Assembly: GCA_964535385.1 (NCBI GenBank)
Contig: CAZHSY010000003.1
Coordinates: 18,529-82,528 of the forward strand
Source of the DNA: an uncultured Candidatus Saccharibacteria bacterium
GTDB taxonomy: Bacteria; Patescibacteriota; Saccharimonadia; CAILAD01; GCA-016700035
Length of the DNA: 64,000 bases
Direction of reading: 5' to 3'
The notes below the pieces were generated by a model. It had not been told where the DNA came from. It did not search any database and saw only the letters and a list, made by a program, of their open reading frames with translations. Positions within the stretch are counted from its first letter, which is position 1; the number at the start of each line of letters is the position of its first letter. A program made the position numbers and the translations under genes. Below are positions 2,055 through 33,875 of the stretch, one piece after another.

Positions 2055-3371
2055 TTAATAGCGTTCATAGGTTGCCATGAGGACCTTTGATTCCATCTCG
2101 CGCTTGGTTTCAATCGCAACTGAGACCAAGATAAAGACAGCTGTGCCACCAAGAGCTACGGCTTGGTTGCTATTGAGGGCACGATCTATAAGGAGCGGCG
2201 AAATTGCCACTACGCCTAGGGCCAGGGCGCCAAAAAGATTTAAGCGACGAATCACTGAGCCGAGATACTTGGAGGTTTCTTTCCCGGGACGTATACCTGG
2301 TATAAATCCACCTTGCTTTTGAAGATTCTCAGCAATTTCATTTGGCTTAAAGACAATTGAAGTATAGAAGAACGTAAAAGCAAAGATTAATACAAAGTAG
2401 GTCACAATATACACCATGTTGGTAGACGTAAACCAAACCGTGAGGTTTTGGGCCAGCTTCGCCACCCAGGCGGTCTGAGCACCCTTTAAGAGGTTGCCAA
2501 TCGCCGTAGGGACCGACAGTAGAGTCAGAGCGAAGATTACCGGAATAACTCCTGCCGAGATCAGGCGCAAAGGCAGGTGCGTATCGACGCTCTTGTATCG
2601 ATCAAGAGCGGCTCGCCGACGGGCGTAGGATATGGGAATGTTACGTTGGGCCTCGTTAACGACCACTACGAAATAAATAGTAGCAAGCGTTACAAAGAGT
2701 ACCAGCCCAACCTTCAATATCTGACTACTGTCTCCCTGTAAGAGTGTCGTTTGTTGAGCTAAGGTACCTGGCAAGCTAGCGCAAATACCGGCTGCAATAA
2801 GGATCGAAATACCATTCCCAAAACCTCGCTCGGTAATAAGTTCCCCAAGCCACATCAAGAACATACTACCAGCCGTCAGAGATAATATTAAGAATGCATA
2901 CTGCGCAATTGACGGGTTACCAACCAAGTCACTGCCAGCCGTTTGCCGGGAGATCTGACGGATCAAAGCAATTACTGCAAAAGACTGAACGAAAGCCATC
3001 GGTACCGCTAGAATACGCATGTACTGGTTGAGCTTGTTCCGACCACGCTCACCTTCTTTCGAGAGGGCCTCCCAACTTGGTATCACCTGCTGCAAGAGCT
3101 GTACGATAATCGAGGCGGTAATATATGGCCCAATTCCAAGTGAAATAATTGAGAAGTTTGCCAGGGCTCCACCAGTAAAAAGATTAGCTAGCCCTAGGAG
3201 TGGCGTACGGCTAAAAAAAGATACTAGATAAGTTTGCAACTCCTTGGTATTGGCAATCGGTGCCGGGACATGAGTCAACAGACTGTAGGTAGCAAGAATA
3301 ATCAAGATGACAAACAAGCGCTTGCGCAGATCGCGATTCTTCCAGACCAACGGTAATGTCTTGAGATTCAT
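2055..3371 (-). CDS. secY: Preprotein translocase subunit SecY
   Basis: 438-aa polytopic membrane protein with SecY signature segments. It follows rplO as expected. Confidence 0.95.
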   Translation of the reverse strand: MNLKTLPLVWKNRDLRKRLFVILIILATYSLLTHVPAPIANTKELQTYLVSFFSRTPLLGLANLFTGGALANFSIISLGIGPYITASIIVQLLQQVIPSWEALSKEGERGRNKLNQYMRILAVPMAFVQSFAVIALIRQISRQTAGSDLVGNPSIAQYAFLILSLTAGSMFLMWLGELITERGFGNGISILIAAGICASLPGTLAQQTTLLQGDSSQILKVGLVLFVTLATIYFVVVVNEAQRNIPISYARRRAALDRYKSVDTHLPLRLISAGVIPVIFALTLLSVPTAIGNLLKGAQTAWVAKLAQNLTVWFTSTNMVYIVTYFVLIFAFTFFYTSIVFKPNEIAENLQKQGGFIPGIRPGKETSKYLGSVIRRLNLFGALALGVVAISPLLIDRALNSNQAVALGGTAVFILVSVAIETKREMESKVLMATYERY

Positions 3372-3403
3372 GTCCCTCCTTACTTTGAGGCGTTTTGCGC
3401 CAA

Positions 3404-3889
3404 CTACTTATCGGATTTTTTGGTGTCAGCAGTAGCTTTGGTGGTTTTTGGCAATGCAGCAATTGTAACACTGCCGCCAACTTTCTCCACCGCATTAATA
3501 GCCTGCGTCGTAGCTGCTTGTACAGTTAGCTTGAAGGCCGTGCTGACTTCACCATCACCAAGTAGTTTAACTGGTCGATCAGCATACTTGGCAATGCCGG
3601 CTTGAGCCAAGCTCTGAGCTGTCACAGTTGTAGCCTTATGGCGAGCTAGATCTTGGAGGTTAATCGTCTGGTAGCTAACGTTTGGAGCGTGCTTGAAACC
3701 ACGGGCCTTCGGCAGACGCATAGCCAATTTTGTCTGACCACCCTCAAAGCCAGGTTTAAGTTTCTTGCCGGTACGAGCTTTTTGACCTTTGGTACCACGA
3801 CCAGCTGTTTTGCCACCGCCGGCAGAGATGCCACGACCAACTCGTTTACGGGCAGTCTTGGTAGCAATGTCTAGTTCATGAATTCTCAT
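3404..3889 (-). CDS. rplO: 50S ribosomal protein L15
   Basis: Gly/Lys/Arg-rich N-terminus (…[23 protein letters not shown]…). It lies directly after rpsE, with no L30 gene between them. Confidence 0.9.
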
Positions 3890-4404
3890 ACTGTTACTTC
3901 CTCGGTCTTTTGATTCTTATCAGCAGATACTGGACTAATTTCGTCAGTTTTGAGGCTTTTGAGTGCTTCAATGGTGGCTGAAGCATTATTGATCTTATTC
4001 GTACTACCAAGAGATTTGGTAAACACATCGCGTACTCCGGCTATTTCAAGTACAGATCGGACTGCGCCGCCAGCAATCACGCCAGTACCAGCTGGAGCTG
4101 GTTTCATAAAGACTTTGGCGCCACCAAACTTGACGGTGATTTCGTGGTTGATAGTAGTCCCGTTGAGCTGCACATGGATCATCTGTTTGCGTGCAATGGC
4201 AGTTGCCTTCTGGATAGCACTAGCTACATCCCGACCTTTACCGACACCAAAACCTACGCTACCCTTACCATCGCCTACTACAACTGTTGCACGGAAGCGA
4301 AAACGACGCCCACCTTTAACTACTCGAGCTACACGATCGAGAGCAATCATGCGCTCAGTAAGATCTGACTCGCGATTCTCAGGGAAATTTGTACGAGGGG
4401 CCAT
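3886..4404 (-). CDS. rpsE: 30S ribosomal protein S5
   Basis: Start chosen at the internal Met (MAPRTNF…) because the longer ORF overlaps rplR. S5 dsRBD and C-terminal domain motifs are present. Confidence 0.9.
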
Positions 4405-4405
4405 A

Positions 4406-4771
4406 TTAGAACTCCAATCCTTTTTGGCGGGCCGCATCAGCCAAGGCGGCGACCCGACCATGGTATTGCTTTGCGCCGCGATCAAACACAACCTGCGTAA
4501 CTTCGGCTTGAGCGGCGACTTCAGCGATTTTTTCACCAACAAACGTTGCCTTCTCGGTCAAGCTAGTTTTAGCTAAGCTCTTCTCGCCTAAGCTAGAAGC
4601 AGCAGCCAATGTGCGGCCAGTTGTATCGTCGATAATCTGAGCAGAAACTTGCTGCAGGGAGACTTGCACACTCAAACGTGGACGCTGGCTCGTGCCACGA
4701 ACCTGTGAACGTGTGCGTAAAGCTCGACGAGTAGTGTGCTGTAGTTTATTGCGTAATTCTTTGGTTTGCAT
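4406..4771 (-). CDS. rplR: 50S ribosomal protein L18
   Basis: 121-aa ORF resembling L18, in the spc-operon position. Confidence 0.9.
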
Positions 4772-4784
4772 AATCTTAGATCCT

Positions 4785-5327
4785 CTAAGCGCCCTTCACC
4801 GCGGTCTTACCGGCCTTACGGCGGATGCGCTCATCGACATATTTAATACCCTTACCTTTATATGGCTCTGGCTTACGCAGCGCACGGATCTGCGCCGCAA
4901 CCTGGCCAACTTGCTGTTTATCAATGCCCTTAACAGTAATAATATTACCTTCAATGACCAGCTCGATACCCTCGGGGGCAGCAAAATCAATCTTGTGTGA
5001 GTAACCGAGTGAAAAGCTTAAGTCTGAACCTTTCTTCTCAACTCGAAAACCAACACCATTCATCTCGAGCTTCTTTTCAAAGCCCTGCGTAACACCTTGA
5101 ACGGCGTTATTGATCAATGTGCGCAAGAGGCCAAAAAGAGCAGCTGTCTCGCGATTCTCGAGTTGCTTCTGAACAGTCAACGTTCCCTCAGATTGCTCAA
5201 TAGCAAAGCCTTCTGGCAAGGCTACGGTCAGCTCGCCCTTTGGGCCTTTTACTAACACTTCACTGTCGGCTGCAGTTACTTCAGTACCGGTTGGAATTGT
5301 AATGGGGTTACGACCAATTCGACTCAT
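4785..5327 (-). CDS. rplF: 50S ribosomal protein L6
   Basis: 180-aa ORF with the duplicated L6 domain. Confidence 0.93.
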   Translation of the reverse strand: MSRIGRNPITIPTGTEVTAADSEVLVKGPKGELTVALPEGFAIEQSEGTLTVQKQLENRETAALFGLLRTLINNAVQGVTQGFEKKLEMNGVGFRVEKKGSDLSFSLGYSHKIDFAAPEGIELVIEGNIITVKGIDKQQVGQVAAQIRALRKPEPYKGKGIKYVDERIRRKAGKTAVKGA

Positions 5328-6923: not shown

Positions 6924-7291
6924 TAGAGAACCTCCGGCGCGAGTGAAACAATTTTCATATAGCCACGGTCACGCAGTTCGCGTGCGACTGGCCCAAAGAT
7001 ACGGGTGCCTCGTGGCTGACCCTGCTTATCAATGATGACAGCCGCATTCTCATCGAATCGAATTGAACTACCGTCAGCTCGCTGGGTTGGCTTAACGCTA
7101 CGCACCACGACTGCCTGAACGACTTCTTTTTTCTTGACAGTTCCGTTTGGAGTAGCCTGCTTAACTGAAGCGGTAATAATATCACCGACTGCAGCATAGC
7201 GACGTTTACTGCCGCCAAGCACCTTGATGCACATGATTTTCTTAGCACCAGTGTTGTCGGCCAAACGCAAAACTGTCTGTGGCTGAATCAT
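6923..7291 (-). CDS. rplN: 50S ribosomal protein L14
   Basis: 122-aa ORF beginning [18 protein letters not shown], a typical L14 N-terminus. Confidence 0.95.
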
Positions 7292-7539
7292 TTGGCGCCT
7301 CCAGCAGCTTTTAATATCTGACTGACCGTAAAGCGCTTGTGAGCACTCATCGGCCGAGTCTCTGTGACTTCGACAACATCACCTAGCTGGCAGGTGTTGT
7401 CAGCATCGTGAGCCTTAAACCGAGTTGTCACCTTGTACTGCTTCTTGTATACCGGATGATTCTTAATGCGCTCAACACTAATCACGACGGTTTTATCCAT
7501 CTTGTTTGAAACAACAGTACCAGTCATTTTTCTACTCAT
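7288..7539 (-). CDS. rpsQ: 30S ribosomal protein S17
   Basis: 83-aa OB-fold protein, in the expected position. Confidence 0.9.
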
Positions 7540-12094: not shown

Positions 12095-12202
12095 CCCAGA
12101 ATATAAACTTCTGATCCATCTATTACTAATTATTGACTCGTACTAAAATTAATGTTTGAATAGTATGGTTATACGTCATTGCTCAATCATAAAGGAGCCC
12201 CC

Positions 12203-12589
12203 TTGAGCACCCAGACAGAGCACCTCGCCATCGATTTCGCTCATCCCCTCATCGTGCGTTGCGAAAACGGCGTGCCGGTACACATCGTCATGACCGTTTG
12301 CGATGGAACTGACTCGCGCATCAAGTACCCAGTCTACCTGAAGGACGAACATCCGGCCATCGAAAGCATCGTCAACAAACTGACGCTCGATCGCCTCGGC
12401 CGCAATATCCATCTCATGGGCCCGATCACGGTCAATGCCGACAACCCCCAGGATCTCCTTCGGCGACTGCGCAACCAGGTGCAGGACAACTTCAAGACCG
12501 TCAACCAACTCCCTCAGACCGATGCTCGCATCAACCGCATCATCGACTATGTCAGGTTGGCCCTGGAGCGCTTCTTCCCCGAGGCTTGA
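12203..12589 (+). CDS. Hypothetical protein (128 aa) in a higher-GC insertion between rpsJ and rplC
   Basis: TTG start preceded by AAGGAG with 5-nt spacing. The ORF-track start is 12179. GC is about 56% by eye, against about 50% in the flanking genes. An intrinsic terminator follows. No family was recognised. Confidence 0.55.
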   Translation: MSTQTEHLAIDFAHPLIVRCENGVPVHIVMTVCDGTDSRIKYPVYLKDEHPAIESIVNKLTLDRLGRNIHLMGPITVNADNPQDLLRRLRNQVQDNFKTVNQLPQTDARINRIIDYVRLALERFFPEA

Positions 12590-12605
12590 GCAAGCCTCAT
12601 TCCCT

Positions 12606-12643
12606 GCCACCTCCACCCCGTGTGAAGGTGGCGCATTTTTTTT
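12606..12643 (+). terminator. Intrinsic terminator (stem GCCACCT/AGGTGGC followed by T8)
   Basis: Hairpin plus a T-run directly after the plus-strand ORF. Confidence 0.6.
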
Positions 12644-12875: not shown

Positions 12876-13196
12876 TTACATTTTGATTTCAATATCCACG
12901 CCGGCTGGCAGCGACAAATTCATAAGGTTATCAATGGTCTTCGGAGTCGGTTCGGTGATATCAATCAACCGCTTGTGGGTTCGCATCTCAAAGGTCTCTT
13001 GGCTGTCTTTGAAAATGTGCGGGCTACGCACCACGGTAGTGGTGTTGCGATCAGTTGGTAGCGGTACGGGGCCAGCGACTTGAGCGCCGGTCCGTACGGC
13101 TGTATCAATGATCTGCTTAGCTGACTGATCAATGACCTTGTTGTCATAGGCCTTGAGTCGGATGCGAATGCGTTGAGCGGTTTTTTCGTTCGGCAT
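12876..13196 (-). CDS. rpsJ: 30S ribosomal protein S10
   Basis: 106-aa ORF resembling S10. It starts 5 nt after the tuf stop. Confidence 0.95.
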
Positions 13197-13201
13197 AGTG
13201 T

Positions 13202-14383
13202 TTACTTGGTGATCTTGGTCACGACACCAGCACCAACGGTGCGGCCGCCTTCACGAATCGCGAAGTTCAGACCATCATCCATGGCGATTGGAGCCAAGAG
13301 CTTGATTGAAGCGTTAATGTTATCACCTGGCATAACCATCTTAGTACCTTCTGGAAGCTTAACTTCACCAGTTACATCGGTGGTACGGAAGTAGAACTGT
13401 GGCTTGTAACCGTCTACGAAAGGAGTGTGGCGTCCGCCTTCTTCCTTAGTCAAGACGTAGATTTCAGCCTCAAACTCGGTGTGAGGAGTAATCGAGCCTG
13501 GCTTAACGATAACCTGACCACGCTCAATCTGTGAACGCTCAATACCACGGAGGAGGAGACCAACGTTATCACCGGCTTGACCCTCGTCAAGCAACTTACG
13601 GAACATCTCAACACCAGTTACGGTAGTCTTCTGTGTGTCCTTGATGCCGACAATTTCTACTTCTTCGTTGACCTTCACGATACCAGTCTCGATCTTACCG
13701 GTCGCAACAGTACCACGGCCTTTGATCGAGAAGACGTCTTCGATTGGCATCAAGAATGGCTTATCGAGATCACGCTTTGGCTCTTCGAAGAAGTCATCCA
13801 TAGCCTTCACGAGTTCCATAATTGAGTCCTCAGCAGCTTCATCGCCTTCGAGAGCCTTCAAGGCAGAACCCTTAACGATAGGGGCATTCTCGTCGAAGCC
13901 GTTCTTCTCGAGCAATTCACGAATTTCCATCTCTACGAGTTCAGCCAATTCTGGATCAGCCATGTCCATCTTGTTCATGTAGACCATGATGGCTGGTACG
14001 CCAACTTGGCGAGCCAAGAGAACGTGCTCACGAGTCTGAGGCATAGGGCCATCAGCAGCTGATACCACGAGGATAGCACCATCAACCTGAGCTGCACCGG
14101 TGATCATGTTCTTCACATAGTCGGCGTGACCTGGCATATCAACGTGAGCGTAGTGACGCTTGTCTGATTCGTATTCCTGGTGAGAAGTAGCGATGGTAAT
14201 ACCGCGCTCGCGCTCTTCTGGAGCCTTGTCGATCTCGTCGTAATTAATTGGTTTGTTTACGTCTGATGGCAACCGCTTAGCCAAAACGTGGGTAATGGCA
14301 GCAGTTAAGGTAGTCTTACCATGGTCAACATGCCCCATAGTACCGACGTTTACGTGTGGTTTGCTGCGATCAAAATTTGCCAC
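13202..14383 (-). CDS. tuf: Elongation factor Tu
   Basis: 393-aa ORF with [17 protein letters not shown] and NKMD motifs. Confidence 0.97.
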
Positions 14384-14579: not shown

Positions 14580-16688
14580 CTATTCAGAGACGGCTGACTT
14601 ACCACTCTTGCCGATGAGTTCTTCGGCAATATTACGTGGAACTTCTGCGTAGTGATCAAATTCCATCGAGTAGTTGGCTCGCCCCTGAGTCATCGAACGC
14701 AAGGTCGTCGCATAGCCAAACATCTGCGAAAGTGGCACGAAGGCATCGATAATCTTAGCGCCCTGGCGATCAGACATCTGCTCGATACGGCCACGCTTGG
14801 AGTTAACATCACCAACCACGTCACCCATGAATTCTTCTGGGGTTGTTACCTCAACCTTCATAACTGGCTCGAGAATGACTGGGTCAGCCTTACGTACACC
14901 AGCTTGAAGTGCTAATGAACCAGCAATCTTAAAGGCCATTTCTGATGAGTCAACTTCGTGATACGAACCGTCATAAAGCTTGGCCTTGACGTCAACGACT
15001 GGGTATCCAGCCAAGACACCATTACCCATGGCTTCCTTAATGCCCTCATCGACTGGCTTAATGTATTCACGCGGCACAGCTCCACCAACGATAGCGTTTT
15101 CAAATTCATAGGTTGGCTTATCACCTTCAACGTCATCAGCATGTACGAGTGGGCAAATTTCGAGCCAGACATGACCATACTGACCACGGCCACCAGACTG
15201 ACGAACAAATTTACCTTCGGCTTCAACGGTCTTACGGATGGTTTCGCGATAAGCCACTTGCGGAGTACCGATATTAGCTTCAACCTTGAACTCACGCTTC
15301 ATCCGGTCAACCAGTACGTCGAGGTGCAGCTCGCCCATACCGGCGATCAAGGTTTGGCCGGCTTCGTTATCAGAGCTAACTCGGAAGGTTGGGTCTTCTT
15401 CAGCCAAACGAGATAGAGCCAGCGACATTTTCTCTTGGTCAGCCTTGGTCTTTGGCTCAACAGCAATCTGAATAACTGGCTCTGGGAAGGTAATTTGCTC
15501 GAGAATAACTGGGTGGCCCTCAGCACTTAAGGTGTGTCCAGTCATGGTGTTTTTGAGACCAACAGCGGCAGCAATTTCACCGGCGTAGACTTCTTGGACT
15601 TCTTCGCGATTATTGGCGTGCATACGCAAGATACGGCCAATTCGCTCCTTCTGCCCGGTAGAGCTATTGAGTACATATGAGCCGGACTTTAACGTCCCAG
15701 CGTATACCCGGAAGAAACAGAGCTTACCAACAAATGGGTCGGTAGCAATCTTGAAGGCCAGACCAGCAAATGGAGCATCATCGGCTACTTTAAGTACTTC
15801 TTGTTCGCCGGTCTTCTCGTTCTCAGCCAAGGGCGGCGTGATATCCAGCGGGTTTGGCAGATAGTCAACCACGATGTCGAGTAACTTCTCAACGATCACG
15901 CCACGTCCATCACCACCAGAAACGATGAAAAATTCACCAGTCAAAACGCTCTTGCGAATGACTGATTTGATTTCTTCTAAGGTTAATTCACCACCTTCAA
16001 GGTATTTTTCGAGGAGGCTGTCATCGATCTCAACAGCAGCTTCAATCAAATGATTACGGTAGCGCTCGACCTTTTCTTTCATGTCTTCAGGGATGTCGAT
16101 CTCAACCAGTTCTTTATCGGTGTAGTCTTTATAGCTATAGGCTTTTTGCTCAATGACATCGATGATGCCGTTGATTTCTTGCTCAAAACCGATTGGCAAG
16201 TGGATTGGGTAAGCCCGCTTGGTCAAACGTGCATGAATCGAGTCCAGACTCTTGTAGAAGTCGCCACCGGTCTGGTTAATCTTATTGATGAAGCAGATAC
16301 GTGGCACGCCATACTTATCAGCCTGACGCCAAACGGTCTCGGATTGTGGCTCAACACCCATCTTGCCGTCGAAGACGGTCACTGCACCGTCCAGGACACG
16401 CAGGGAACGCTCGACTTCAACAGTAAAGTCGATGTGGCCAGGAGTATCAATGATATTGATGCGCTTGCCGTTCCAGAAACAAGTCGTGGCTGCAGAAGTG
16501 ATCGTAATACCCCGTTCTTGTTCTTGTTCCATCCAGTCCATAGTTGCCTCACCCTGGTGCACTTCGCCAATCTTGTGGGTTTTTCCAGTGCGATACAAGA
16601 CGCCTTCCGTAACGGTAGTTTTACCGGCATCAATGTGAGCAATAATTCCAATATTTCGGGTATCTTCGAGAGAATATTCGCGGGCCAT
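14580..16688 (-). CDS. fusA: Elongation factor G
   Basis: 702-aa ORF with a GTPase domain (AHIDAGKTT) and EF-G domains II to V. Confidence 0.97.
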
Positions 16689-16913
16689 AGTGTTCCTACT
16701 TATGCTTTAAAAATGATAGTCAAATTGACGAAAAAATAAGCGCGAACAAGCGCTTGTTACGTGTATTTTACCAGGTTGACCACTTCCACGCAATGCTACT
16801 CATGAAAAGGCTATTGACAGATATACGCTAGGAAAGTATGATCTGGTTCCCAGAAGACAACAGGGTTAACTGGTGTGCTCCGTACATCGGAATATTGAAC
16901 GAGGAGTAACCTC

Positions 16914-17267
16914 ATGCGTACCAAGACAAGTAAGCAATTTCGACTCCTCGCCGTCGCCATCATGGCGACGCTCGGCGGACTGACCTTCGGGGTCAGCAAC
17001 GCTGGTGCGGCGAGCAGCTTCCTCAGGAATGACAAGTGGCTGGCGGTCTACTCGCCTGCCTGTGGTGCCATCGGCTGCCCCTATGGTCCGGGCTATATGG
17101 TCAAGGACAATACGGGATTCACGATGGTGTGCTGGGCAGATGGCCCCTGGGTGAACGGCAACTACAACACCAACCGCTGGTTCCGTGGCCGTGTCAACGG
17201 CATCAGTGGTCAGGTCTGGGTCCCGGCATCCTACGTCTTCAATCAGACGCGAGTCGGCCACTGCTGA
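16914..17267 (+). CDS. Small secreted Cys-containing protein (117 aa), possibly SH3b-like
   Basis: N-terminal signal peptide (MRTKTSKQFRLLAVAIMATLGGLTFGVSNAGAASS). The mature part has Cys and Gly/Trp-rich segments ending …GQVWVPASYV, reminiscent of bacterial SH3 domains. A GAGGAG ribosome-binding site precedes it. GC is about 58% by eye. Confidence 0.6.
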   Translation: MRTKTSKQFRLLAVAIMATLGGLTFGVSNAGAASSFLRNDKWLAVYSPACGAIGCPYGPGYMVKDNTGFTMVCWADGPWVNGNYNTNRWFRGRVNGISGQVWVPASYVFNQTRVGHC

Positions 17268-17275
17268 TCAACACG

Positions 17276-17322
17276 AGGCTTCTTGTGTGTTCTTTCTCGG
17301 ACACACAAGAAGCCTTTTCTAA
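17276..17322 (+). terminator. Strong intrinsic terminator (14-bp perfect stem AGGCTTCTTGTGTG/CACACAAGAAGCCT followed by TTTCT)
   Basis: Lies directly after the plus-strand ORF and abuts the 3' end of the AAA+ gene. Confidence 0.7.
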
Positions 17323-17323
17323 T

Positions 17324-19774
17324 CTACGAGGCATCGACTTGCACGAGATCTTCTTTCGAAATTGTAATTAGTTGTCCTGACTTGATCTGACCGGCCAGCA
17401 TCCGCTGCGCAATTACATCTTCCACAAACCGCTGAAGAGCTCGTCGCATCGGTCGAGCACCCATACGTGGATCATTTCCCTTTTCGACCATGAAAGCTAG
17501 CGCCTCAGGAGTCATGGCGACTGTGATGTGTCGACTAGCAAGTTGTTTATTAAGGTTCTGCAGCTGAATACCAACTACCTGCTGAAGTTCCTCCGGTTTA
17601 AGTGGGCGGAACATCGTAATGTCATCAAAACGGTTTAAGAGTTCTGGGCGGAACAGCTTCTGGGATATAACCAAGTCGATCAAAGCATCATGTTTGGTCT
17701 CGAGCTCAACCCCATCGCTCACCCACTGCCGGATCTGCTCTGCACCGGCATTGGAGGTGGCAATAATGATAGCTTCTTTAAAGCTAACAACCTTGCCAGC
17801 AGTGTCAGTTAAGCGACCTTCATCGAGCATTTGAAGTAAGAGATTAAGGAAGTCAGGATGGGCCTTCTCAATCTCATCCAGCAGCACGACGCTGGCGGGT
17901 TTCATTCGAACCTGTTCGAGGAAGGCTGACCCAGCTGAGGTCTCGGCGGCGGCATTCAGTAAGCGATTGATATCACTCGGGTTCTGATACTCTGACATAT
18001 CTAGGCGGATCATGTTTTGCTCATCACTAAAGTACACAGCCGCCAGTGATCGAGCCAACTCGGTCTTACCAACACCAGTCGGGCCAAGAAAAAGAAAACT
18101 ACCAACCGGTCGCTTGGGGTCGCGCACTCCAGTCCGAGCTCGCCGCAAGGAAGACGCCACAGCTTTGACAGCCGTATTTTGGTTGATCATACGCTCATGA
18201 ATTAAATCCTCGAGCTTAAGTAGGGTCTGAGCCTCATTACTGCCCTGCTCAACAACTCCAGTCTTAACACCCGTACGGCTCTCGACGGCCTGATTGACTG
18301 ATTGTTCAGTAACTCTGCCTTCGACAGCATAATTTAAACTACTCATGAGCAAGTCAATCGCTCGACCCGGTTGAGCTTTTTCACCCAAGAAGCGATTCGA
18401 CAGCTCAATAGCTTGCTTGAGCGCCCGATAGGTGATGACTAGGCGGTGTTGGTTCTCAAAATCAAAGGCCACGTCCTGAAGGATCTGAAAACAAAGCTCG
18501 TCGGTCACTTCTGGCAACTGCAATTTATTAAGCATTCCGACCAGCTGGCCGTTGATCTGGGCGAATCGAGTCCATTCTTCATCGGTAAAACCAAAGATCA
18601 TTGGCAAGTGCGTTTTTTCTACGATTGGCTGCAAAATCCGAGTTGCATCAATGGCTCCAGGTTTATTTTCGAAGAACAAACTGGCATCTTCAAAGTACAG
18701 GATGACATTCTTAGCTCGCACAGCGTCATTCATCATTTTTGTGAAGATCGCTTCGACAGATTCATTCTTACCAGCACTGGTAATGGCCGTGGCTGAAACC
18801 GACATCATCTTGCGATAGGTCAACTTACCCGCCGGCATACCGGTGAGGATCTTCTCGGCAAACCGATACACCAACGTCGTCTTACCGCTGCCAGTGGCGC
18901 CGATCAGAGCCACATTGGTGCGGGCTGGCTGATTGAGTAATTGCACAAACTGATCAAGCATCTCCTCGCGACCATAAGCCGAGAAGCTCCGATGGCCAGC
19001 TTCAATCTCGTCGGATAGATTTGCTGCGAACTGGTCAAGATAATTAGTATAGCCAGCTGCGAAGTCGCGACCAATTCCACCAAAGCTCTCTCGAGCCCGA
19101 CGCTCTAAGCGATCGCGCTCGATATGCTCAAGCCAGTTCAAACCAAATACCAGATCTTGTTCGGAGATCTCAAAAGTCCCCAGCCAACCGGGCTGTTCAC
19201 GCTCTACTTCTAAGAGGCCGGCTACAAGAATCGTGCCACCATTAATGAACTGACTACCCACCCGCTGCATCAGCGAGCCACTCAAGCTGTAGAGCTGATC
19301 AGGGGTAAGCTTAGTAATGACAGCCGCGGCCGCTTGTAACGTCTGATCTGTTAGCTCCAAGTGCGATATAACATAGTGCGCCTGCCATGTGCCTTGAGCA
19401 GCCTGCCAGATGGCATTTACATCACTGTGTCGTGACAGGCGCACGGTGAGCTCAGGTGATAATACATCGGGAATATTGGTCATATTGCGCCGCGCTAGCC
19501 AGTCTGGCCCGAACTGATCGAGGCCCCAGCTGGAATAAAGTCCCAACATCGCGATCGGAGCACCAGGTACAAGCAATAAGATCGCGATCTTCTGGCCAAG
19601 TAGATACCCCATGACAGCCGTCAGCCATAGTAGTCCACCAATCACCAGTAGAGCCGTATGTAAAACCGGCGACATGAGTGAATGCATAGCCTTTAGCCGC
19701 CGGCGTCTAGCCGAGCTCTGCCAGCTGAGCTGCGGGGTGGCTTGATTCGGGGTCGCATTGACTGTTTGATCCAT
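17324..19774 (-). CDS. Membrane-anchored two-domain Hsp100/Clp-like AAA+ ATPase (about 816 aa)
   Basis: Two N-terminal transmembrane helices. D1 has Walker A GATGSGKT and an altered Walker B (ILYFED). D2 has Walker A GPTGVGKT, Walker [14 protein letters not shown], sensor-1 IIIATSN and the GARPMRRA arginine-finger region. By eye there is no IGF/LGF ClpP-docking loop and no GYVGY pore loop. The start is chosen at the Met whose ATG overlaps the upstream gene's TAA (TAATG). The ORF-track start is 19834. Confidence 0.8.
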   Translation of the reverse strand: MDQTVNATPNQATPQLSWQSSARRRRLKAMHSLMSPVLHTALLVIGGLLWLTAVMGYLLGQKIAILLLVPGAPIAMLGLYSSWGLDQFGPDWLARRNMTNIPDVLSPELTVRLSRHSDVNAIWQAAQGTWQAHYVISHLELTDQTLQAAAAVITKLTPDQLYSLSGSLMQRVGSQFINGGTILVAGLLEVEREQPGWLGTFEISEQDLVFGLNWLEHIERDRLERRARESFGGIGRDFAAGYTNYLDQFAANLSDEIEAGHRSFSAYGREEMLDQFVQLLNQPARTNVALIGATGSGKTTLVYRFAEKILTGMPAGKLTYRKMMSVSATAITSAGKNESVEAIFTKMMNDAVRAKNVILYFEDASLFFENKPGAIDATRILQPIVEKTHLPMIFGFTDEEWTRFAQINGQLVGMLNKLQLPEVTDELCFQILQDVAFDFENQHRLVITYRALKQAIELSNRFLGEKAQPGRAIDLLMSSLNYAVEGRVTEQSVNQAVESRTGVKTGVVEQGSNEAQTLLKLEDLIHERMINQNTAVKAVASSLRRARTGVRDPKRPVGSFLFLGPTGVGKTELARSLAAVYFSDEQNMIRLDMSEYQNPSDINRLLNAAAETSAGSAFLEQVRMKPASVVLLDEIEKAHPDFLNLLLQMLDEGRLTDTAGKVVSFKEAIIIATSNAGAEQIRQWVSDGVELETKHDALIDLVISQKLFRPELLNRFDDITMFRPLKPEELQQVVGIQLQNLNKQLASRHITVAMTPEALAFMVEKGNDPRMGARPMRRALQRFVEDVIAQRMLAGQIKSGQLITISKEDLVQVDAS

Positions 19775-20139
19775 TACAAACCTGCAATCCCTAGTGCAAT
19801 GGCAATAAAAGGTATAATTGGAAAGACTAGCCAAAGCACAAACAGCACACTAGCCGCCAGAAACAGTAGCGCTGTGCCCATAAGCCAAGCGACAATAAAG
19901 ATCATTCGGATAATAAATCCGATCAAGCGGGCTACTAGATTCATAACCATGGCTTGCATCATCTGATCTATGCCCTGACCGCCTTCGACCCGGTCTTCTT
20001 TCCATGGCGCGAAGAGTGTACGTAGCATCTGCTTCACACTTAAGCTGTAGTACAGTTTTCGGGTACTATCTTTGGCAGACTGCAAGACATGCAGCCAGCC
20101 CGGTCCGTACCACCAGGTAAGCATATCCGTTATCAGCAT
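19774..20139 (-). CDS. Small membrane protein (121 aa) with two C-terminal transmembrane helices, translationally coupled to the AAA+ ATPase
   Basis: Soluble N-terminal region of about 70 aa followed by two hydrophobic helices. Its stop overlaps the AAA+ start by 1 nt. Confidence 0.6.
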   Translation of the reverse strand: MLITDMLTWWYGPGWLHVLQSAKDSTRKLYYSLSVKQMLRTLFAPWKEDRVEGGQGIDQMMQAMVMNLVARLIGFIIRMIFIVAWLMGTALLFLAASVLFVLWLVFPIIPFIAIALGIAGL

Positions 20140-20184
20140 GATTCTATTTTACACGAGCTCGAGTTTTAGTACAGATAGCACTAC

Positions 20185-20212
20185 AAAAAGAAAACCCCCT
20201 ATTGCTAGGGGG
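20185..20212 (-). terminator. Intrinsic terminator in the minus sense (stem CCCCCTA/TAGGGGG followed by a U-run)
   Basis: Overlaps the stop codon of the small Cys-rich protein gene. In the minus sense the stem is followed by TTTTCTTTTT. Confidence 0.6.
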
Positions 20213-20525
20213 TGATAGATCGAGCTAGTTCGGTCGCAACAATACGACGAGGCAGCTTGTTGCCACGTGGCAGTCGCCACGGCTGAGTGCTGAGGTAATC
20301 ACCGTGAGGCTTTCCCAGTGCTTCGTAGCACTCCTCGTGATAGTGTTCAACTCGGTCCCAACGTGGTTGGTCGTTTGAGTCACGAACGTAGATGTTGCAA
20401 ATGGCTTGGCGCCGTTTGACCTTGGCCCTGAATTTCACACGCTCACCACAGTGAGCACAGTTGACAGTGCTGCCAGCTTCGATCATGCGTAGGACGGCTC
20501 GCGTCCTGGGCTGTGTTGCCGTCAT
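20205..20525 (-). CDS. Small Cys-rich (CxxC-containing) protein, 106 aa
   Basis: Cys/His pattern (CAHCGERV…C…HYHEEC). It lies immediately downstream of rpsG. GC is about 55% by eye. Confidence 0.55.
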   Translation of the reverse strand: MTATQPRTRAVLRMIEAGSTVNCAHCGERVKFRAKVKRRQAICNIYVRDSNDQPRWDRVEHYHEECYEALGKPHGDYLSTQPWRLPRGNKLPRRIVATELARSITP

Positions 20526-20630
20526 GGACGTGAGTTCCTTTCGCTTATTCCTGATGTTCAGGTTTTGCTATATTACAACTTTTATTAAATTAATGCAATA
20601 GATGAACGCTGAGCAGAGACTTTCTAGATC

Positions 20631-20850
20631 ATAAAAGGCCCGTTTAGCAGGATGTTGTAGTAGGCAAAACAAAAACCGGATCTAAGACATGCTCTAAACA
20701 AATAAGTCTGATTATCCTCGCGGCCAAGACCAGTTTAGCGAAATGCTCCGCTAGGCTTAACCAAAAACTCCTCGTAAGGCGTACTTTAACGTACGGTGTC
20801 GAGGAGTTTTTGGTGTAAACGACGCTGAGCGTTCGATATAACTGGTCGCT
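20631..20850. repeat. Structured intergenic repeat, copy C2, directly after the rpsG stop
   Basis: 5' block AAAAGGCCCGTTTAGCAGGATGTTGTAGTAGGCAAAACAAAAACCGGATC aligns with C1. A 14-bp perfect inverted repeat (CCAAAAACTCCTCG/CGAGGAGTTTTTGG, 20761–20814) encloses the core GTAAGGCGTACtttaacGTACGGTGTCGA. The 3' block TAAACGAC…GATATAACTGGTCG aligns with C1. Confidence 0.7.
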
Positions 20851-20852
20851 GT

Positions 20853-21329
20853 CTAGTAACGGGCGAAGTGGGCGAAGGCGCGATTAGCCTCAGCCATCTG
20901 GTGCGTATCTTGTTTCTTCTTAATAGCATCGCCCTGATTGTTGTAAGCATCGAGAAGCTCATTAGCTAGCAAGATATCAAAGCTCTTGCCTTCCTTACGA
21001 CGAGCCGAGTCGAGCATCCAGATCATAGCGTAGTGAATCTTGCGATCTGGTTTCACTTCCATTGGAACTTGGTAATTTGCACCACCAACACGGCGAGAAC
21101 GAACTTGTACATTTGGGCTAGCATTCTTAACTGCACCTTCAAAGACTTCCATAGGATCCTTCTTAGCCTTCGTGGCGGCCTGATCGAGAGCTGCATATAC
21201 CAAGCGCTCAGCCGTACGCTTCTTGCCTTCTTTCATAACTTTATTAATCATACGAGTAACCAGTACTGAGTTGTACTGCAAGTCTGGCTTGAGTTGACGC
21301 TTGAGAGAAGCGGTTTTCTTACGTGGCAT
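20853..21329 (-). CDS. rpsG: 30S ribosomal protein S7
   Basis: 158-aa ORF resembling S7. Confidence 0.95.
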   Translation of the reverse strand: MPRKKTASLKRQLKPDLQYNSVLVTRMINKVMKEGKKRTAERLVYAALDQAATKAKKDPMEVFEGAVKNASPNVQVRSRRVGGANYQVPMEVKPDRKIHYAMIWMLDSARRKEGKSFDILLANELLDAYNNQGDAIKKKQDTHQMAEANRAFAHFARY

Positions 21330-21332
21330 AGT

Positions 21333-21755
21333 TTAGTCCTTCTTGCCCTTTTCGAGCTTAGCGCCGTACTTACTGCGACCCTGTTTACGCTGAGCTACAC
21401 CAGCAGTGTCAAGGCTACCACGTACTACGTGATAACGAACACCAGGAAGGTCCTTAACACGACCACCACGCACCAAGACCACACTGTGCTCCTGGAGGTT
21501 GTGACCGATACCGCCGATATAGGCAGTAACTTCCATACCATTTACCAAACGGACACGAGCAACTTTACGAAGCGCTGAGTTAGGCTTCTTTGGGGTCTGG
21601 GTGAAAACCTTCGTACACACACCGCGCTTAAATGGGTTAGCAGTTGTCGTAGCCTTACCTTTCAGGGCGTTGGTGGTCCGCATCAAAGCTGGGGCCTTAC
21701 TCTTAGAAGTGGCCTGCTTACGGGGTTTGCGAATGAGTTGATTGATTGTTGGCAT
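21333..21755 (-). CDS. rpsL: 30S ribosomal protein S12
   Basis: 140-aa ORF with conserved …KRGVCTKV…[16 protein letters not shown]… It carries an N-terminal insertion of about 10 aa relative to E. coli S12. Confidence 0.95.
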
Positions 21756-21986: not shown

Positions 21987-24900
21987 TTACTTATCCTCCT
22001 CGGACCTAAAGCCGGTTCCGACTGGAATAAGACGTCCAATAATGACGTTCTCCTTCAGACCACGAAGGTGGTCAGTCCGGCCACGTAATCCAGCGCCGAT
22101 CAAGACTTTCATAGTTTCCTGGAAGGATGCGGCTGAGAGCCAACTGTCAGAGCTGATGGAAATCTTAGAAATCGGCATCAGGAGCTGCTCATAGGTAGCT
22201 GGCTTTTTCTTAGCCTCAAGCGCATCGGCGTTAGCTTCGCTCAATGACGTCTTCGAGATAATATCGCCAGCGATAAACTCGGTGTCATTTGGCTCTTCGA
22301 TGCGCACGCGGCTAAACATCTGGCGAATAATCACCTCGATGTGCTTAGATGCAATCGTCTGGCCCTGACTCGAGTAGATAGCTTGCACTTCGTCAACGAT
22401 ATAACGCTGTACAGCTTCCTCGCCAAGCAAACGGTGCATGTCCTGCAAGTTGACAGAACCCTGGGTAAGTCGTTGACCGACGGTCACTAGGTCACCATTC
22501 TTGATGTGTAATGTAACGTAATCCGGAATAGTGTACTCCTTGACGTTACCACCTTCATGACTGAGCTCTATAACGGTCTTTCCAACGCTAATGCGACCGT
22601 CGGCACCAGCTTTAATAGTCCGCTTACCGGTCTCGCTTACAGCCAGGACATCACCCTTCTTGACTATGGCGCCGGTCTTGACGCTTATCTTCATGCCGGC
22701 CTTGATGTCGTACTTGGTAATCTTCAGATCAGCTGGAGCGATGCGCAGAACTTGCTTGCCATCAATGGTCTTCAGGGTAGCTATGCCATCGACTTCAGCC
22801 AACAAAGCCTCACCACGAGGGTTACGAACTTCGAAGATTTCTTCAACACGAGGCAAACCTTGGGTGATATCAGCAGCCGAAGCAACACCACCGGCGTGGA
22901 ACGTACGCATCGTCAGTTGAGTGCCTGGTTCACCAATTGACTGAGCAGCCATAATACCAACTGCTTCGCCCATCTCAACTTCAGCCCCATGGGCCAGATC
23001 AACACCGTAACAGTGCTTACAAATACCCCAGCTCAGGGTGCATTTCATGATGCTCCGGATAACCACTTCGTCGATACCGGCATCGACGATTGCCTGAGCA
23101 ATTTCATCGGTGATTGGCGCATTGGCTTTTACGAGTGTCCTGTCGTCGTCTTTAACAGCCTTTGCGCTATATCGACCGACAATCCACGGGATGAACGAGT
23201 CGAGTCCAGCAGCCCGGGCTTCGGAGCCAGTTACTTTATAACCAGTCTTGTCACCACAGTCATCGGCTGAAATCAGAACATCCTGAGCGACATCAACCAA
23301 ACGACGAGTCAGGTAACCTGATTCAGCAGTCTTGAGAGCTGTATCGGTAAGACCCTTACGAGCACCGTGTGAGGAGATGAAGTATTCGAGAATATTCAAA
23401 CCTTCTTTATAGTTGCTCTTCACCGGCAGCTCAATAGTGCCTCCAGTTGAGTTGAGCACCAAGCCCTTCATACCGGCCATCTGGTTAGCCTGGCCAACCG
23501 TTGCACGAGCACCAGACTCGATGTCCATAGCTAGGGTTGAGCTGTTTGGATCGAGCTCCTCGGCCAGCTCAGCTTCGATCTTTTCACCGACTTCTTTCCA
23601 TATTTCGATAGTGCGCTCTTTGCGCTCATCGTTGGTGATCAAGCCTTGCTGATACTGAGTTGTGACGGCCTGGGCCTTAGTCTCGCCTTCTTCGAGAATC
23701 TTGACCTTGCCGGCTGGTGCATGGAGGTCGTCCATACCCAGTGAGAAACCAGACTCAGTGGCGTACTGATAGCCAATCTCCTTGATGGCATCGGCAGTTA
23801 GAGCGGTCTGCTCGCCGCCAAATAGTACGAAGATTTCGGCTAAAACAGCCTTGAGGCGAGATTTGGTCATCGCATCATTTTGGAAGGTTAGACCTTCTGG
23901 AAGATGTTCGTTGAAGATCAAGCGACCAACTGAGGTCTCAATGACTTCGCCATCCAAACGAACCTTAACACCGGCCCGCAAGTGAACAATATCCTGCTGA
24001 TAGGCCATCATTGCCTCATCGCGGGAACTGAAGCTCTTGCCTTCACCCTGTGCGCCGTCTTGAATGTTGGTCATGTAGAAACAACCGAGTACAATCTCGT
24101 GACTTGGGTTAATGATTGGCTCACCGCTAGCTGGCTTGAGCAAGTTGTTCGAGGCCAGCATAATCTCGCGAGCTTCTTTCTGAGCTGCGTCTGACAGCGG
24201 CACATGGACAGCCATCTGATCACCATCGAAGTCAGCGTTGAAGGCTGCACAGACCAATGGATGAAGCTGAATTGCCTTACCTTCGATGAGAACCGGGCGA
24301 AAAGCCTGAATCGACAGACGGTGCAAGGTAGGAGCACGGTTGAGAAGTACGTACTTATCGGTAATGACTTCTTCGAGAGTATCCCAAACTTCAGTCCGAG
24401 CTCGTTCGATCATTCGAGCCGCACTCTTGACGTTGTGAGCGTATTCTCTCTCGATAAGCTTTGAGATAACAAACGGCTTGAAGAGTTCTAGGGCCATCAT
24501 CTTCGGAATACCACACTCGTCGAGCTTGAGGTGAGGACCAACTACGATCACCGAACGACCTGAGTAGTCGACGCGCTTACCAAGCAAGTTCTGACGGAAG
24601 CGGCCCTGCTTACCCTTAAGAAGGTCGGTCAAGCTCTTGAGCTTCTTACGTGAACCACCAACCGCGGTGACAGCCCGCTCACGGCGTGAGTTGTTGTCCA
24701 TCAAAGCATCGACAGCTTCCTGAAGCATGCGCTTTTCATTGCGGCAAATGACTTCTGGAGCTTCGAGTGAGTAGAGCTTCTTCAAGCGATTGTTACGGTT
24801 AATAACCCGACGATAGAGGTCATTCAAGTCTGAAGCGGCAAAGCGACCACCATCGAGCTGAACCATTGGACGCAAATCTGGCGGAATGACTGGTAGTTCC

Positions 24901-25805
24901 TGCATGACCATTGAGTCTGGCTTAATCTTGGCTTGCTGCATGCCTTCAACGATCTTGAGACGCTTGAGAGCTTTGCGCATACGCTGGCCACTGGTTGAAG
25001 TTGATTCCTCGCGCAGCTCTTCGGCCAACCTATCGAGATCGATTTCGACGAGAAGATCACGAATAGCCTCGGCACCGATACCAGCCTTGAAAACATTACC
25101 GTATTTAATATTAAGATCACGATAAGCACCTTCGGGCAACAATTGATATTTAGCTAGGCCTTCGAGCTCATTTTTAGCACCCAAGTAGTTAACCTCTAGG
25201 TCGGCTAGTTCCTTCTGGCCAACTTCATCAAGTCCTGATTCATCCTTGGCTTCATACTTGGTCAGGATTTCTTTGCGACGGCTCTGATAATCTTGGGATA
25301 GCTCTTCGAGAGAATTGGTACGGGCATCCTCATCGACATCTTTGACGACGAAGTTAGCGAAATAGGTGACTCGTTCGAGATCGCGCACGCTCATATTCAG
25401 AAGTGTACCAATTGAACTTGGCGTCCCACGAAGGAACCAAATGTGCGTTACAGGAACTGCCAAATGAATGTGCCCCATACGCTCACGGCGAACGATAGCC
25501 CGCGTGACGAGCACACCGCACTTATCACAAGTAATACCCTTGTAGCGGATCCCCTTGTACTTACCGCAATAACATTGCCAGTCTTTGGTTGGACCAAAAA
25601 TCTTTTCGCAGAAGAGGCCGTCTTTTTCTGGCTTCTGAGTCCGGTAGTTAATTGTCTCAGGCTTAGTGATTTCACCATGGCTCCAATCAAGAATTTGTTC
25701 GGAACTAGCGACCGTTAAACGGATGGCCGAAAAATCAATTGACGGGAGTGCCTGCGCATCGTGCTGTATATCTGATCGGGTTTCTGTTTGAGTTCCAGCT
25801 TCCAT
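21987..25805 (-). CDS. rpoC: DNA-directed RNA polymerase beta' subunit
   Basis: 1272-aa ORF with the NADFDGD catalytic motif and the N-terminal zinc-binding Cys cluster. Confidence 0.97.
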
Positions 25806-31113: not shown

Positions 31114-31722
31114 TTATTTACGAGAGATCACCTTGTCGACAATACCATACTCAGCCGCTTCCTTAGCACTCATCCAGAAATCACGATCTGAATCAGTGGC
31201 TACGCGCTCTATTGTCTGGCCAGTTCGCTCAGCGATTATTTGATTAATCTCCTCGCGAGTCTTGATGATTTCCTTAGCGGTGATTTCAATATCAGCGGCC
31301 GTTCCTTCAAAGCCGCCAGATGGCTGGTGCACCATGATTCGACTATGTGGCAAGGCAAATCGCTTACCTTTTTGCCCCATTGTAAGCAGGAAGGCGCCCA
31401 TCGAAGCTGCCATACCGACCACAATCGTTGAGACATCCGGCTTAATGTGCTCCATAGTATCGAAGATGCCCATACCAGCAGTCACACTACCGCCTGGTGA
31501 ATTAATATAGAGCGTAATATCGGCATTCTTGTCCTCGCTCTCGAGGAAGAGCAGCTGGGCAATTATGAGGTTAGCCACCGTGTCATCAACCGCCGTTCCA
31601 AGGAAAATAATCCGCTCCTTTAACAGCCGCGAGTAAATGTCATAGGCCCGCTCCCCCATGCTGGTCTTCTCGATTACAGTTGGGACGAGAATTGAATTGT
31701 ATTGTGTCTTGTCCATGCCCAC
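31114..31722 (-). CDS. clpP: ATP-dependent Clp protease proteolytic subunit
   Basis: 202-aa ORF with …[18 protein letters not shown]… and the Ser-His-Asp catalytic triad context. Confidence 0.95.
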
Positions 31723-33780: not shown

Positions 33781-33865
33781 TATCAATATCTGGTGCGGAT
33801 GAAAGGACTTGAACCTTCACGCCTTGCGGCACCAGCTCCTAAGGCTGGCGTGTCTACCAATTCCA
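33781..33865 (-). tRNA. tRNA-Leu (anticodon TAG), type II with a long variable arm and an encoded CCA
   Basis: Reverse complement is GCGGATGTGGTGGAATTGGTAGACACGCCAGCCTTAGGAGCTGGTGCCGCAAGGCGTGAAGGTTCAAGTCCTTTCATCCGCACCA. Cloverleaf stems were identified by eye. The anticodon loop is CTTAGGA. Confidence 0.85.
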
Positions 33866-33875
33866 CCACATCCGC

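Follow-up and report, generated by a model that had tools for sequence, protein, structure and literature searches.

A predicted membrane-anchored, Clp-like double AAA+ ATPase without pore-loop tyrosines and its co-inherited small membrane partner in Saccharibacteria

We analyzed a 64,000-nucleotide stretch of DNA (hereafter, the window) from an uncultured Candidatus Saccharibacteria bacterium (contig CAZHSY010000003.1), in which two overlapping genes between rpsG and fusA encode an 816-amino-acid (aa) ATPase with two AAA+ modules, D1 and D2, and a 121-aa membrane protein, here called the partner. The ATPase is composed of a predicted N-terminal membrane hairpin, a domain with a possible Clp_N-like fold, D1 and D2, and by the comparisons given below the two genes appear to form a native, ancient, core two-gene module of Saccharibacteria (TM7). 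What is new is a membrane-anchored double-ring Clp that has neither pore-loop tyrosines nor a middle domain (M-domain) and that comes with a dedicated small membrane subunit. We propose, giving the idea about an even chance of being right, that the pair is an ATP-driven, ClpP-independent membrane remodelling complex and not a threading unfoldase. The features of the pair are listed here by window position, with residue numbers of the ATPase.

17324-19774, minus strand: 816-aa double-AAA+ ATPase, whole gene with stop codon
19774-20139, minus strand: gene of the 121-aa membrane partner, whose stop overlaps the ATPase start
19517-19669, minus strand: predicted two-helix membrane hairpin, residues ~36-86 (hydropathy and AlphaFold)
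19085-19507, minus strand: divergent, possibly Clp_N-like helical N-domain, residues ~90-230, followed by a conserved GGxGRD...G.T linker
18341-19048, minus strand: D1 AAA+ module, residues ~243-478, Walker A intact, Walker B ILYFED, no KYR, no arginine fingers
17327-18232, minus strand: D2 AAA+ module and small domain, residues ~515-816, canonical ATPase, GYVG pore loop deleted, no IGF loop

The Pfam matches of the ATPase are AAA_2 (E 4e-46), ClpB_D2-small (7e-24) and AAA_lid_9 (1e-9), with no match to Clp_N (PF02861) or UVR. In the PDB it matches ClpC and ClpB at E 1e-105 (phmmer), the same two proteins are its best Foldseek matches, and it is 32% identical to the ClpC encoded in the window at 44150-46630 (BLASTP). 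An earlier note on this DNA, made from the sequence alone, had described an atypical Hsp100/Clp-like protein with two AAA+ domains, and Pfam, NCBIfam, PDB and BLASTP agree with that description. By its predicted domains, the ATPase is a member of the Clp/Hsp100 superfamily. The nearest NCBIfam models are ClpB, ClpA, ClpK, ClpG and ClpV, with scores of about one third of the curated cut-offs: 421 bits for ClpB (TIGR03346, cut-off 1232), 351 and 270 for ClpA (TIGR02639, cut-off 993; PRK11034, cut-off 1350), and 291 for ClpV/TssH (TIGR03345, cut-off 885). The protein fails the tested features of ClpC/ClpA, ClpB and ClpV, and it also lacks the aromatic pore loops, the functional hallmark of the group as a whole. 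None of the Clp names should be given to it. Assignment as DolB of the Dodola defence system was rejected: the PADLOC match (103 bits) covers the generic D2 region 492-680, the partner matches no PADLOC model, and the gene is core.

The window also encodes ClpP (31114-31722, minus strand, Pfam E 4e-85), and its ClpC (44150-46630, minus strand) is canonical, with KYR, GYVGY and IGF loops all present; the standard Clp machinery is therefore present apart from the pair. This clpC gene is flanked by 42776-44113 and 46675-47898 (both minus strand), read by eye (not scanned) as radA and nusA, in the same gene order as SEML1_0510-0513 of Southlakia epibionticum.

Motifs were compared using HMMER alignments to solved ClpC and ClpB and BLASTP alignments to the canonical ClpC of the window. 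In D2, Walker A (GPTGVGKT, residues 564-571), Walker B (LLDEIE, DE at 633-634), sensor-1 (TSN, 673-675) and sensor-2 (GARPMRR) are the same as in canonical ClpC, and the arginine finger R715 (LNR) is present, as it is there. The segment NAAA----ETSAGSAF stands in place of the GYVG pore loop of the window ClpC, and the IGF loop for ClpP docking is missing (QWVSDGVELE, versus KYVGFNVQ in B. subtilis ClpC and KIGFTTD in the window ClpC). In D1, Walker B reads ILYFED where canonical ClpC has ILFIDE, the pore loop reads SAGKNES where ClpC has AGTKYRGE, and the arginine fingers are gone (QLVGMLN versus ALERRFQ, RR to N-A); the module can probably still bind nucleotide. The M-domain is gone too, as seen from a gap of ~70 residues between D1 and D2 relative to the window ClpC (BLASTP) and from the HMMER alignments, where ATPase residues 479-488 (in a numbering one higher than the true one) span ClpB 387-517 and ClpC 397-470. 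The TPxLDxFGxDLT-type junction before D1 is kept, as in ClpC, ClpA and ClpB. The earlier note had aligned the ATPase with ClpC by eye and was right throughout (D2 canonical, no IGF loop, an AETSAGSAF-type pore loop, ILYFED in D1, no KYR), and the losses of the M-domain and of the D1 arginine fingers go beyond it. Intact tyrosine pore loops and an (I/L)GF loop, by which the note would have recognized an ordinary ClpC paralogue, are seen in neither kind of alignment.

Conservation of these motifs was measured over 91 aligned, diverse family members. Walker A and B, TSN, the LNR arginine finger and GARPMRR of D2 are kept in at least 90% of the sequences. In the D2 pore loop, conservation falls to 20-70% per column; the loop is often shorter by a further two residues and has no aromatic residue in any sequence. 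No member retains either of the pore-1 tyrosines (deleted or replaced), and the remaining pore-loop residues are small or acidic. D1 keeps Walker A throughout the family; its Walker B consensus is hhhhD[D/E/N], and both the RR fingers and an aromatic pore loop are missing. Such a pattern speaks for purifying selection acting on an altered function and against decay. In co-culture the gene is dispensable (see below), which would suit a soluble ClpC/ClpB paralogue of the ordinary kind or a pseudo-enzyme in decay, without a specific role. However, every equivalog cut-off is missed by a wide margin, the M-domain, IGF loop and pore tyrosines are all missing, and the hydrophobic hairpin is conserved; as for decay, D2 motifs that are near-invariant down to 35% identity, an intact open reading frame (ORF) and a strictly co-inherited partner argue for purifying selection. 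We regard this explanation as refuted on sequence grounds, and its probability as minimal.

Clp/Hsp100 machines grip and thread polypeptides by means of pore-loop tyrosines. Because the ClpP loop, the M-domain and the aromatic pore-1 loops are all absent, the ATPase is predicted to be neither a ClpP partner nor a DnaK- or MecA-controlled disaggregase, and it is probably not a processive polypeptide-threading unfoldase. The earlier note had suggested, among other roles, extraction of membrane proteins. One could envisage an extraction or quality-control unfoldase that threads by non-aromatic loops and uses the partner as adaptor or receptor, similar to FtsH, Msp1 or Cdc48 but without a protease; the N-terminal face of the ring (hairpin, N-domain, D1) would then face the membrane, and the D2 motor is fully conserved. 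Extraction by threading is nevertheless disfavoured by the family-wide deletion of both pore-1 tyrosines and the poor conservation of the small or acidic residues left in the loops, by a D1 without arginine fingers, and by the absence of a ClpP loop and of a protease domain. The tyrosines are lost also in the distant branch represented by the protein P0037 (described below), which points to a stable state and not to recent decay. We consider such an unfoldase unlikely; a non-threading or regulatory role would fit the sequences better.

The membrane anchoring claimed in the earlier note is borne out by hydropathy, which shows one continuous hydrophobic block at residues ~36-86 with peaks of 2.0-2.15, and by the AlphaFold model, which places two helices in it (residues 37-60 and 62-87). 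At least one hydrophobic segment lies within the first 140 residues in all 91 family members (hydropathy). The tail before the hairpin is Arg-rich, and because it contains five K/R against one D/E it is predicted to be cytoplasmic by the positive-inside rule; the hairpin would then be N-in/C-in, with both the tail and the AAA+ body on the cytoplasmic side. Modelled alone, residues ~90-230 reach a predicted local distance difference test (pLDDT) score of 85, and hhalign gives a weakly positive match of this domain to Clp_N repeats (probability 46%), with no match to Pfam PF02861. W214, R236, D237 and G241 are kept in 97-100% of the family. The near-invariant, family-specific residues comprise R23 in the N-terminal tail, W80 at the end of the second transmembrane helix, F134 and W214 in the N-domain, and R236, D237 and G241 in the Gly-rich linker.

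The partner gene directly precedes the ATPase gene on the same strand, and its stop codon and the ATPase start codon share one base (TAATG), i.e. the overlap described in the earlier note is seen in the sequence. The same arrangement holds across the family: using a hidden Markov model (HMM) on six-frame translations, we found that each of the 82 loci with upstream DNA has the partner directly upstream of the ATPase in the same orientation, a count that leaves out three misses at contig edges. Stop and start overlap in ~68 of 78 loci, by 4 nucleotides (nt) in 38, by 1 nt in eight and by 7-18 nt in ~22. Since the two genes are strictly co-inherited and translationally coupled, the genomic evidence argues strongly for a stoichiometric complex of the two proteins.

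No match to the partner was found in Pfam, NCBIfam, PADLOC or PHROGs. Its C-terminal 50 residues are hydrophobic (hydropathy), and the sequence is best described as a ~70-residue, presumably cytoplasmic N-terminal part with WWYG.GW and TLF.P motifs, followed by a tight hydrophobic hairpin. The invariant positions are W9, W10, Y11, G14, S34, T41-L42-F43, P45, R71, G74, F75, R78, W103 and P107. A partner profile built from 24 relatives recovers 1374 cluster representatives, nearly all 115-135 aa long; for 829 the E value is <=1e-10.

A possible link between the two proteins comes from P0037 (locus L086, 2753-5374), a more distant membrane-anchored Clp-like ATPase of 873 aa and 34% identity. Both pore-loop tyrosines are missing from P0037 and from its relative P0295, and the N-termini of the two proteins resemble the partner (FWYxEG, LFFVPLF and a W..P hairpin). 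A 166-sequence partner alignment matches the P0037 N-terminus in hhalign with a probability of 76% (P 2.3e-5), against 1.3% for a control using the ATPase's own hairpin; the small partner profile gives 17%, and a plain partner HMM scores P0037 no better than shuffled sequences. A word-indexed search with the P0037 N-terminus returned just two relatives. P0037 and P0295 may thus be natural partner-ATPase fusions, which we treat as a moderate lead. Two actinobacterial "AAA ATPases" of 713-738 aa, P0038 and P0059, were rejected as relatives: they are ordinary ClpB without the N-domain, with intact GYIGY and (K/M)YRG loops.

The family is widespread in Saccharibacteria. A protein search returned 14 full-length ATPase relatives of ~805 aa at 44-91% identity, below which there is a sharp drop to ordinary ClpC at ~31%. 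A scan of one genome per species gave at least 596 confirmed ATPase stretches; the best 80 of these show 35-57% identity over residues ~40-811, and almost all of the 80 are labelled Candidatus Saccharibacteria, Saccharimonadales, Nanosynbacter or Minimicrobia. Among 145 Clp-like matches in 2.9 million viral contigs (IMG/VR), one is a true family member (locus L093, IMGVR_UViG_3300033402_000781, 3001-5277; 39% identity over residues 43-811), which is probably a Saccharibacteria fragment or a prophage-bearing contig filed as viral. The features of this unnamed family are the N-terminal membrane hairpin, the lack of M-domain, IGF loop and pore tyrosines, and an upstream WWYG/TLF.P partner of about 120 aa with stop/start overlap, and the window pair shows every one of them. 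Public annotation calls the ATPase only "AAA family ATPase" or "Clp ATP-binding subunit", and full-text literature searches turned up no account of a saccharibacterial Clp that is anchored in the membrane and lacks the tyrosines.

With ClpC, ClpA and ClpB the ATPase shares two tandem AAA+ modules in the same order, the ClpB_D2-small domain, all D2 catalytic motifs and possibly, by the weak match given above, a Clp_N-like fold of the N-domain. Unlike them, it lacks the M-domain, UVR, the IGF/VGF loop, the KYR and GYVG pore loops and the D1 arginine fingers, and it adds a membrane hairpin and an obligate, translationally coupled small membrane partner. ClpV (TssH), like the ATPase, has no ClpP loop and is a specialized remodeller rather than a protease partner; it differs in being soluble and in keeping its pore-loop tyrosines, and the ATPase falls far short of its model (see above). 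FtsH, Msp1 and Bcs1 also have an N-terminal membrane anchor that sets the ring entrance beside the bilayer, but they are single-ring proteins of other AAA+ clades with no Clp_N or D2-small domain, and FtsH has a protease domain. Bcs1, too, works without classical aromatic pore loops. The resemblance to Torsins and their partners LAP1 and LULL1 concerns the working mode only: Torsins are Clp/Hsp100-related, membrane-associated AAA+ proteins that have no aromatic pore-loop residues and work with membrane-spanning partners (established knowledge; reviewed in PMC5425593). Torsins have one AAA+ module, reside in the lumen of the endoplasmic reticulum and receive their arginine finger from the partner, whereas the ATPase has two modules on the cytoplasmic face and its own D2 arginine finger; we claim homology only at the level of the AAA+ clade.

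In the window, the pair lies in the gap between rpsG and fusA of the str region, surrounded by the following features.

21987-25805, minus strand: rpoC
21333-21755, minus strand: rpsL
20853-21329, minus strand: rpsG
20760-20774 / 20800-20814, minus strand: 15-bp perfect hairpin with a 25-nt loop, just 3' of rpsG
20205-20525, minus strand: gene of a 106-aa basic Cys/His protein
20213-20194, minus strand: intrinsic terminator of the 106-aa Cys/His gene
20140-20204, minus strand: intergenic spacer with the Cys-gene terminator and a promoter-like TTGTAG-N17-TAAAAT just 5' of the 121-aa gene
16914-17267, plus strand: GC-rich gene of a 117-aa secreted protein, convergent with the ATPase gene
14580-16688, minus strand: fusA
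13202-14383, minus strand: tuf

The gene order and coordinates given in the earlier note for this interval are correct by ORF positions, as is its terminator after the Cys-rich gene, and sequences identical to the 816-, 121-, 106- and 117-aa products are on record in NCBI assemblies. The note was also right that the position is unusual: in Southlakia, rpsL, rpsG and fusA are consecutive, no gene lies between rpsG and fusA (466-nt gap), and the pair is outside the str region. The single four-gene insertion of 4.1 kb that the note assumed does not hold, as only the 121-aa gene and the ATPase gene travel together (82/82 loci), and its "repeat C2" is a single perfect hairpin of 15 bp with no other copy in the window, possibly a terminator or attenuator. 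This hairpin, the Cys-gene terminator and the promoter-like site at the partner suggest separate transcription of the pair; the hexamers of that site were read directly from the sequence, and an automated scan gave no call. Given the pair's own promoter-like site and the hairpin after rpsG, the description of the pair as embedded in the str operon would hold as synteny rather than co-transcription. At the gathering threshold, Rfam finds a tRNA (33794-33875) and no other RNA element in the window.

The position between rpsG and fusA is found only in relatives whose ATPase is at least 49% identical. Loci L001 and L002 read rpsG, Cys protein, partner, ATPase, fusA; in L003 and L004 (1138-9049) the interval also takes in a NUDIX gene, the Cys protein, an ABC-F ATPase and further ORFs; L087 (3258-10182) has NUDIX before and ABC-F after the pair and lacks the Cys protein; and L089 is like the window minus the 117-aa gene. 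The gap is thus a variable slot in this clade, holding a NUDIX hydrolase, a double-ABC ATPase of the ABC-F type (548-551 aa) and a number of small ORFs. Between fusA and tuf the content varies too: L001 and L003 carry additional ORFs there (151-163 aa). Since the position is clade-limited and the GC content of the pair equals that of its flanks, the window arrangement is best read as a clade-specific relocation of a native module from beside murT-gatD into the variable rpsG-fusA interval.

A recently inserted foreign island, i.e. a mobile element or anti-phage defence cargo in the str operon, might also account for the variable content of the interval among relatives (NUDIX, ABC-F, small ORFs), for the GC-rich, strain-specific 117-aa gene and for the PADLOC match to DolB. 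The pair itself, however, is core in Saccharibacteria, with hundreds of species genomes and a Southlakia gene flagged as a core family by Wang et al. (PMC10633639), its GC content matches that of the flanks, and the 103 bits for DolB reflect generic ClpB-D2 similarity, far below the 421 bits of the ClpB model. The region showed neither an integrase or transposase nor direct repeats at its flanks, PHROGs gave no match, and the viral collection holds the one true member given above. The island explanation is largely refuted, and we assign it next to no probability.

In the other ~75 loci the pair lies elsewhere; in the commonest arrangement its divergent neighbours are murT, seen in 30 loci, and gatD, seen in 24. 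The earlier note's question about conservation in other genomes can now be answered: the pair occurs throughout Saccharibacteria, usually beside murT-gatD, and only in the near clade between rpsG and fusA. The genes murT and gatD specify the lipid II isoglutaminyl synthase (examples upstream of the pair: gatD in L050, 3520-4242; murT in L038, 2351-3619), and neither lies within the 64-kb window. Within ~6 kb of the pair, murB and a MurA-like gene each occur in 12 loci, mostly downstream. In loci L006-L085, an HTH-fused MurA-like gene and type IV pilin-like genes are often near the pair, again mostly downstream. The recurrent neighbour families, read by eye (not scanned against type VI secretion models), are cell-wall genes, pilins, an acyltransferase and a glycosyltransferase.

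Southlakia epibionticum has a comparable locus (Wang et al. 2023, PMC10633639, Tables S1/S2). SEML1_0700, a 2583-bp "AAA family ATPase" gene flagged as a core family, has AAA_2 at 544-706 and D2-small at 713-792 and no Clp_N; the hypothetical gene SEML1_0701 (384 bp) overlaps it, and the two are divergent from MurT (0702) and GatD (0703). The partner gene and murT are 46 nt apart. Because this layout matches the 30 fetched loci, SEML1_0700 and SEML1_0701 are very probably orthologues of the window pair. In transposon sequencing (Tn-seq), both genes were called NE, NE and GD over three passages, and their normalised reads fall in parallel (4124, 2517 and 1638; 258, 157 and 51); the likely orthologues are accordingly listed as dispensable with a common late growth defect (PMC10633639). 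In the same table MurT and GatD are essential, and the canonical ClpC (SEML1_0512) and ClpP are non-essential too. A word search of the main text of PMC10633639 found no discussion of SEML1_0700 or SEML1_0701.

The neighbourhood hints at a role of the pair as assembly or regulatory factor for peptidoglycan enzymes at the membrane face, such as MurT/GatD in lipid II amidation, with whose genes the pair has a divergent promoter region in common in most Saccharibacteria: murT and gatD lie divergently upstream in 30 and 24 loci, murB and the MurA-like gene recur nearby, and only 46 nt separate partner and murT in Southlakia. The link is, however, not obligatory, as the window clade has the pair apart from murT-gatD, and MurT and GatD are essential where the pair is dispensable. 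Saccharibacteria have a highly conserved gene order, so that neighbourhood would be weak evidence, and we count this against the role. A peptidoglycan role is in our estimate decidedly unlikely; it concerns the client of the pair and could coexist with the remodelling model.

Based on these observations, we propose for the remodelling complex the following working model. The N-terminal hairpin would tether the ATPase to the cytoplasmic side of the membrane, as an oligomeric ring with the N-domains beside the bilayer, and the ATPase would form a stoichiometric membrane complex with the partner. D1 would act as a nucleotide-stabilized structural or assembly ring, and D2, with all catalytic motifs intact, as the motor. 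ATP hydrolysis in D2 would be used to remodel a membrane-associated client, or to put it together and take it apart, or else to remodel the assembly that the partner itself forms; the client would be engaged through the Clp_N-like domain and the conserved cytoplasmic N-terminal motifs of the partner. The working mode would be closer to that of Torsin-LAP1 or Bcs1 than to that of ClpB or FtsH.

Several points weigh against this model: (i) partner binding, ring formation and ATP hydrolysis are all inferred from sequence; (ii) the non-threading mode is deduced only from the missing aromatic pore-1 residues, and other loops could grip substrate; (iii) the full-length AlphaFold model of the ATPase is mediocre (pLDDT 68, below 50 in places in D2) and too weak for pore geometry, and the topology is taken from hydropathy; (iv) the evidence for the fusions is mixed, the HMM score of P0037 being equal to that of shuffles; (v) the murT-gatD, murB and pilin neighbourhood may reflect general synteny only; and (vi) the orthology of SEML1_0700/0701 is drawn from Pfam coordinates, gene sizes, overlap and synteny, not from direct alignment.

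The two other genes of the interval are unrelated neighbours and not parts of the module. The 106-aa protein carries the pattern CxxC...ICN...W.RVE[HY][YF]H..CY, kept in L001, L003, L007 and L089 (homologues at 7257-7523, 2621-2974, ~3118-3483 and 3388-3672, respectively), recurs just after rpsG in the clade and probably binds zinc; it has no match in the family libraries (Pfam, NCBIfam, PHROGs) or the PDB. A role as third subunit was rejected: the gene ends in a terminator of its own, does not adjoin the pair in L003 and is missing in L087, where the ATPase is 73% identical. The 117-aa gene has a GC content of 0.56 (~0.46-0.54 for its neighbours), an 11/12 sigma-70-like promoter (16814-16842, plus strand) and, at its 3' end, a perfect 15-bp inverted repeat (17276-17290 / 17301-17315). 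Its product has a hydrophobic, signal-like N-terminal segment and four Cys in the mature part, so that the high GC, secretion signal and 3' hairpin described in the earlier note stand, whereas the SH3b-like assignment finds no match in Pfam, NCBIfam, PDB or PHROGs. No homologue was found in the examined relatives, even where the ATPase is 91% identical, and the gene has the look of strain-specific cargo that was acquired recently, perhaps from a high-GC source such as an actinobacterial host.

A GC-rich hairpin with T-runs on both strands (16735-16758, AAGCGCGAACAAGCGCTT) lies ~50 nt upstream of the fusA start and may act as a terminator in both directions or as a leader element of fusA. Between rpsJ (12876-13196) and the next ribosomal genes there is a second GC-rich patch (12200-12599, GC 0.578) with overlapping ORFs (12179-12589, plus strand; 12176-12616, minus strand) that have no Pfam match; the corresponding place in locus L001 is taken by a DUF3467 gene.

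The position in the str region, as a clade-specific relocation into a variable interval, is of lesser interest and a minor curiosity. As for annotation, the gene goes under the name of a Clp protease subunit or generic AAA ATPase in hundreds of genomes, and no ClpC or ClpB function should be deduced from such names. Saccharibacteria are now genetically tractable (PMC10633639), and the Tn-seq data suggest that both genes can be deleted, which makes the hypothesis directly testable. A bolder proposal, which we think unlikely on present evidence, is that the pair represents a new kind of membrane-embedded AAA+ machine, an ATP-driven device built from an Hsp100-derived double ring without tyrosine threading and about six copies of the hairpin protein, specific to Saccharibacteria and perhaps other Patescibacteria, and acting as a Bcs1- or Torsin-like remodeller or gate for components of the envelope or host interface. 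If true, it would matter for the ultrasmall epibiotic cell, and the P0037-like fusions would mark a wider, unrecognized family. In any case, this lineage keeps a Clp paralogue with a conserved D2 motor, no pore tyrosines, a predicted membrane anchor and an obligate partner, and if the complex works, it would show what an Hsp100 ring is able to do without threading, a question so far raised mainly by the eukaryotic Torsins.

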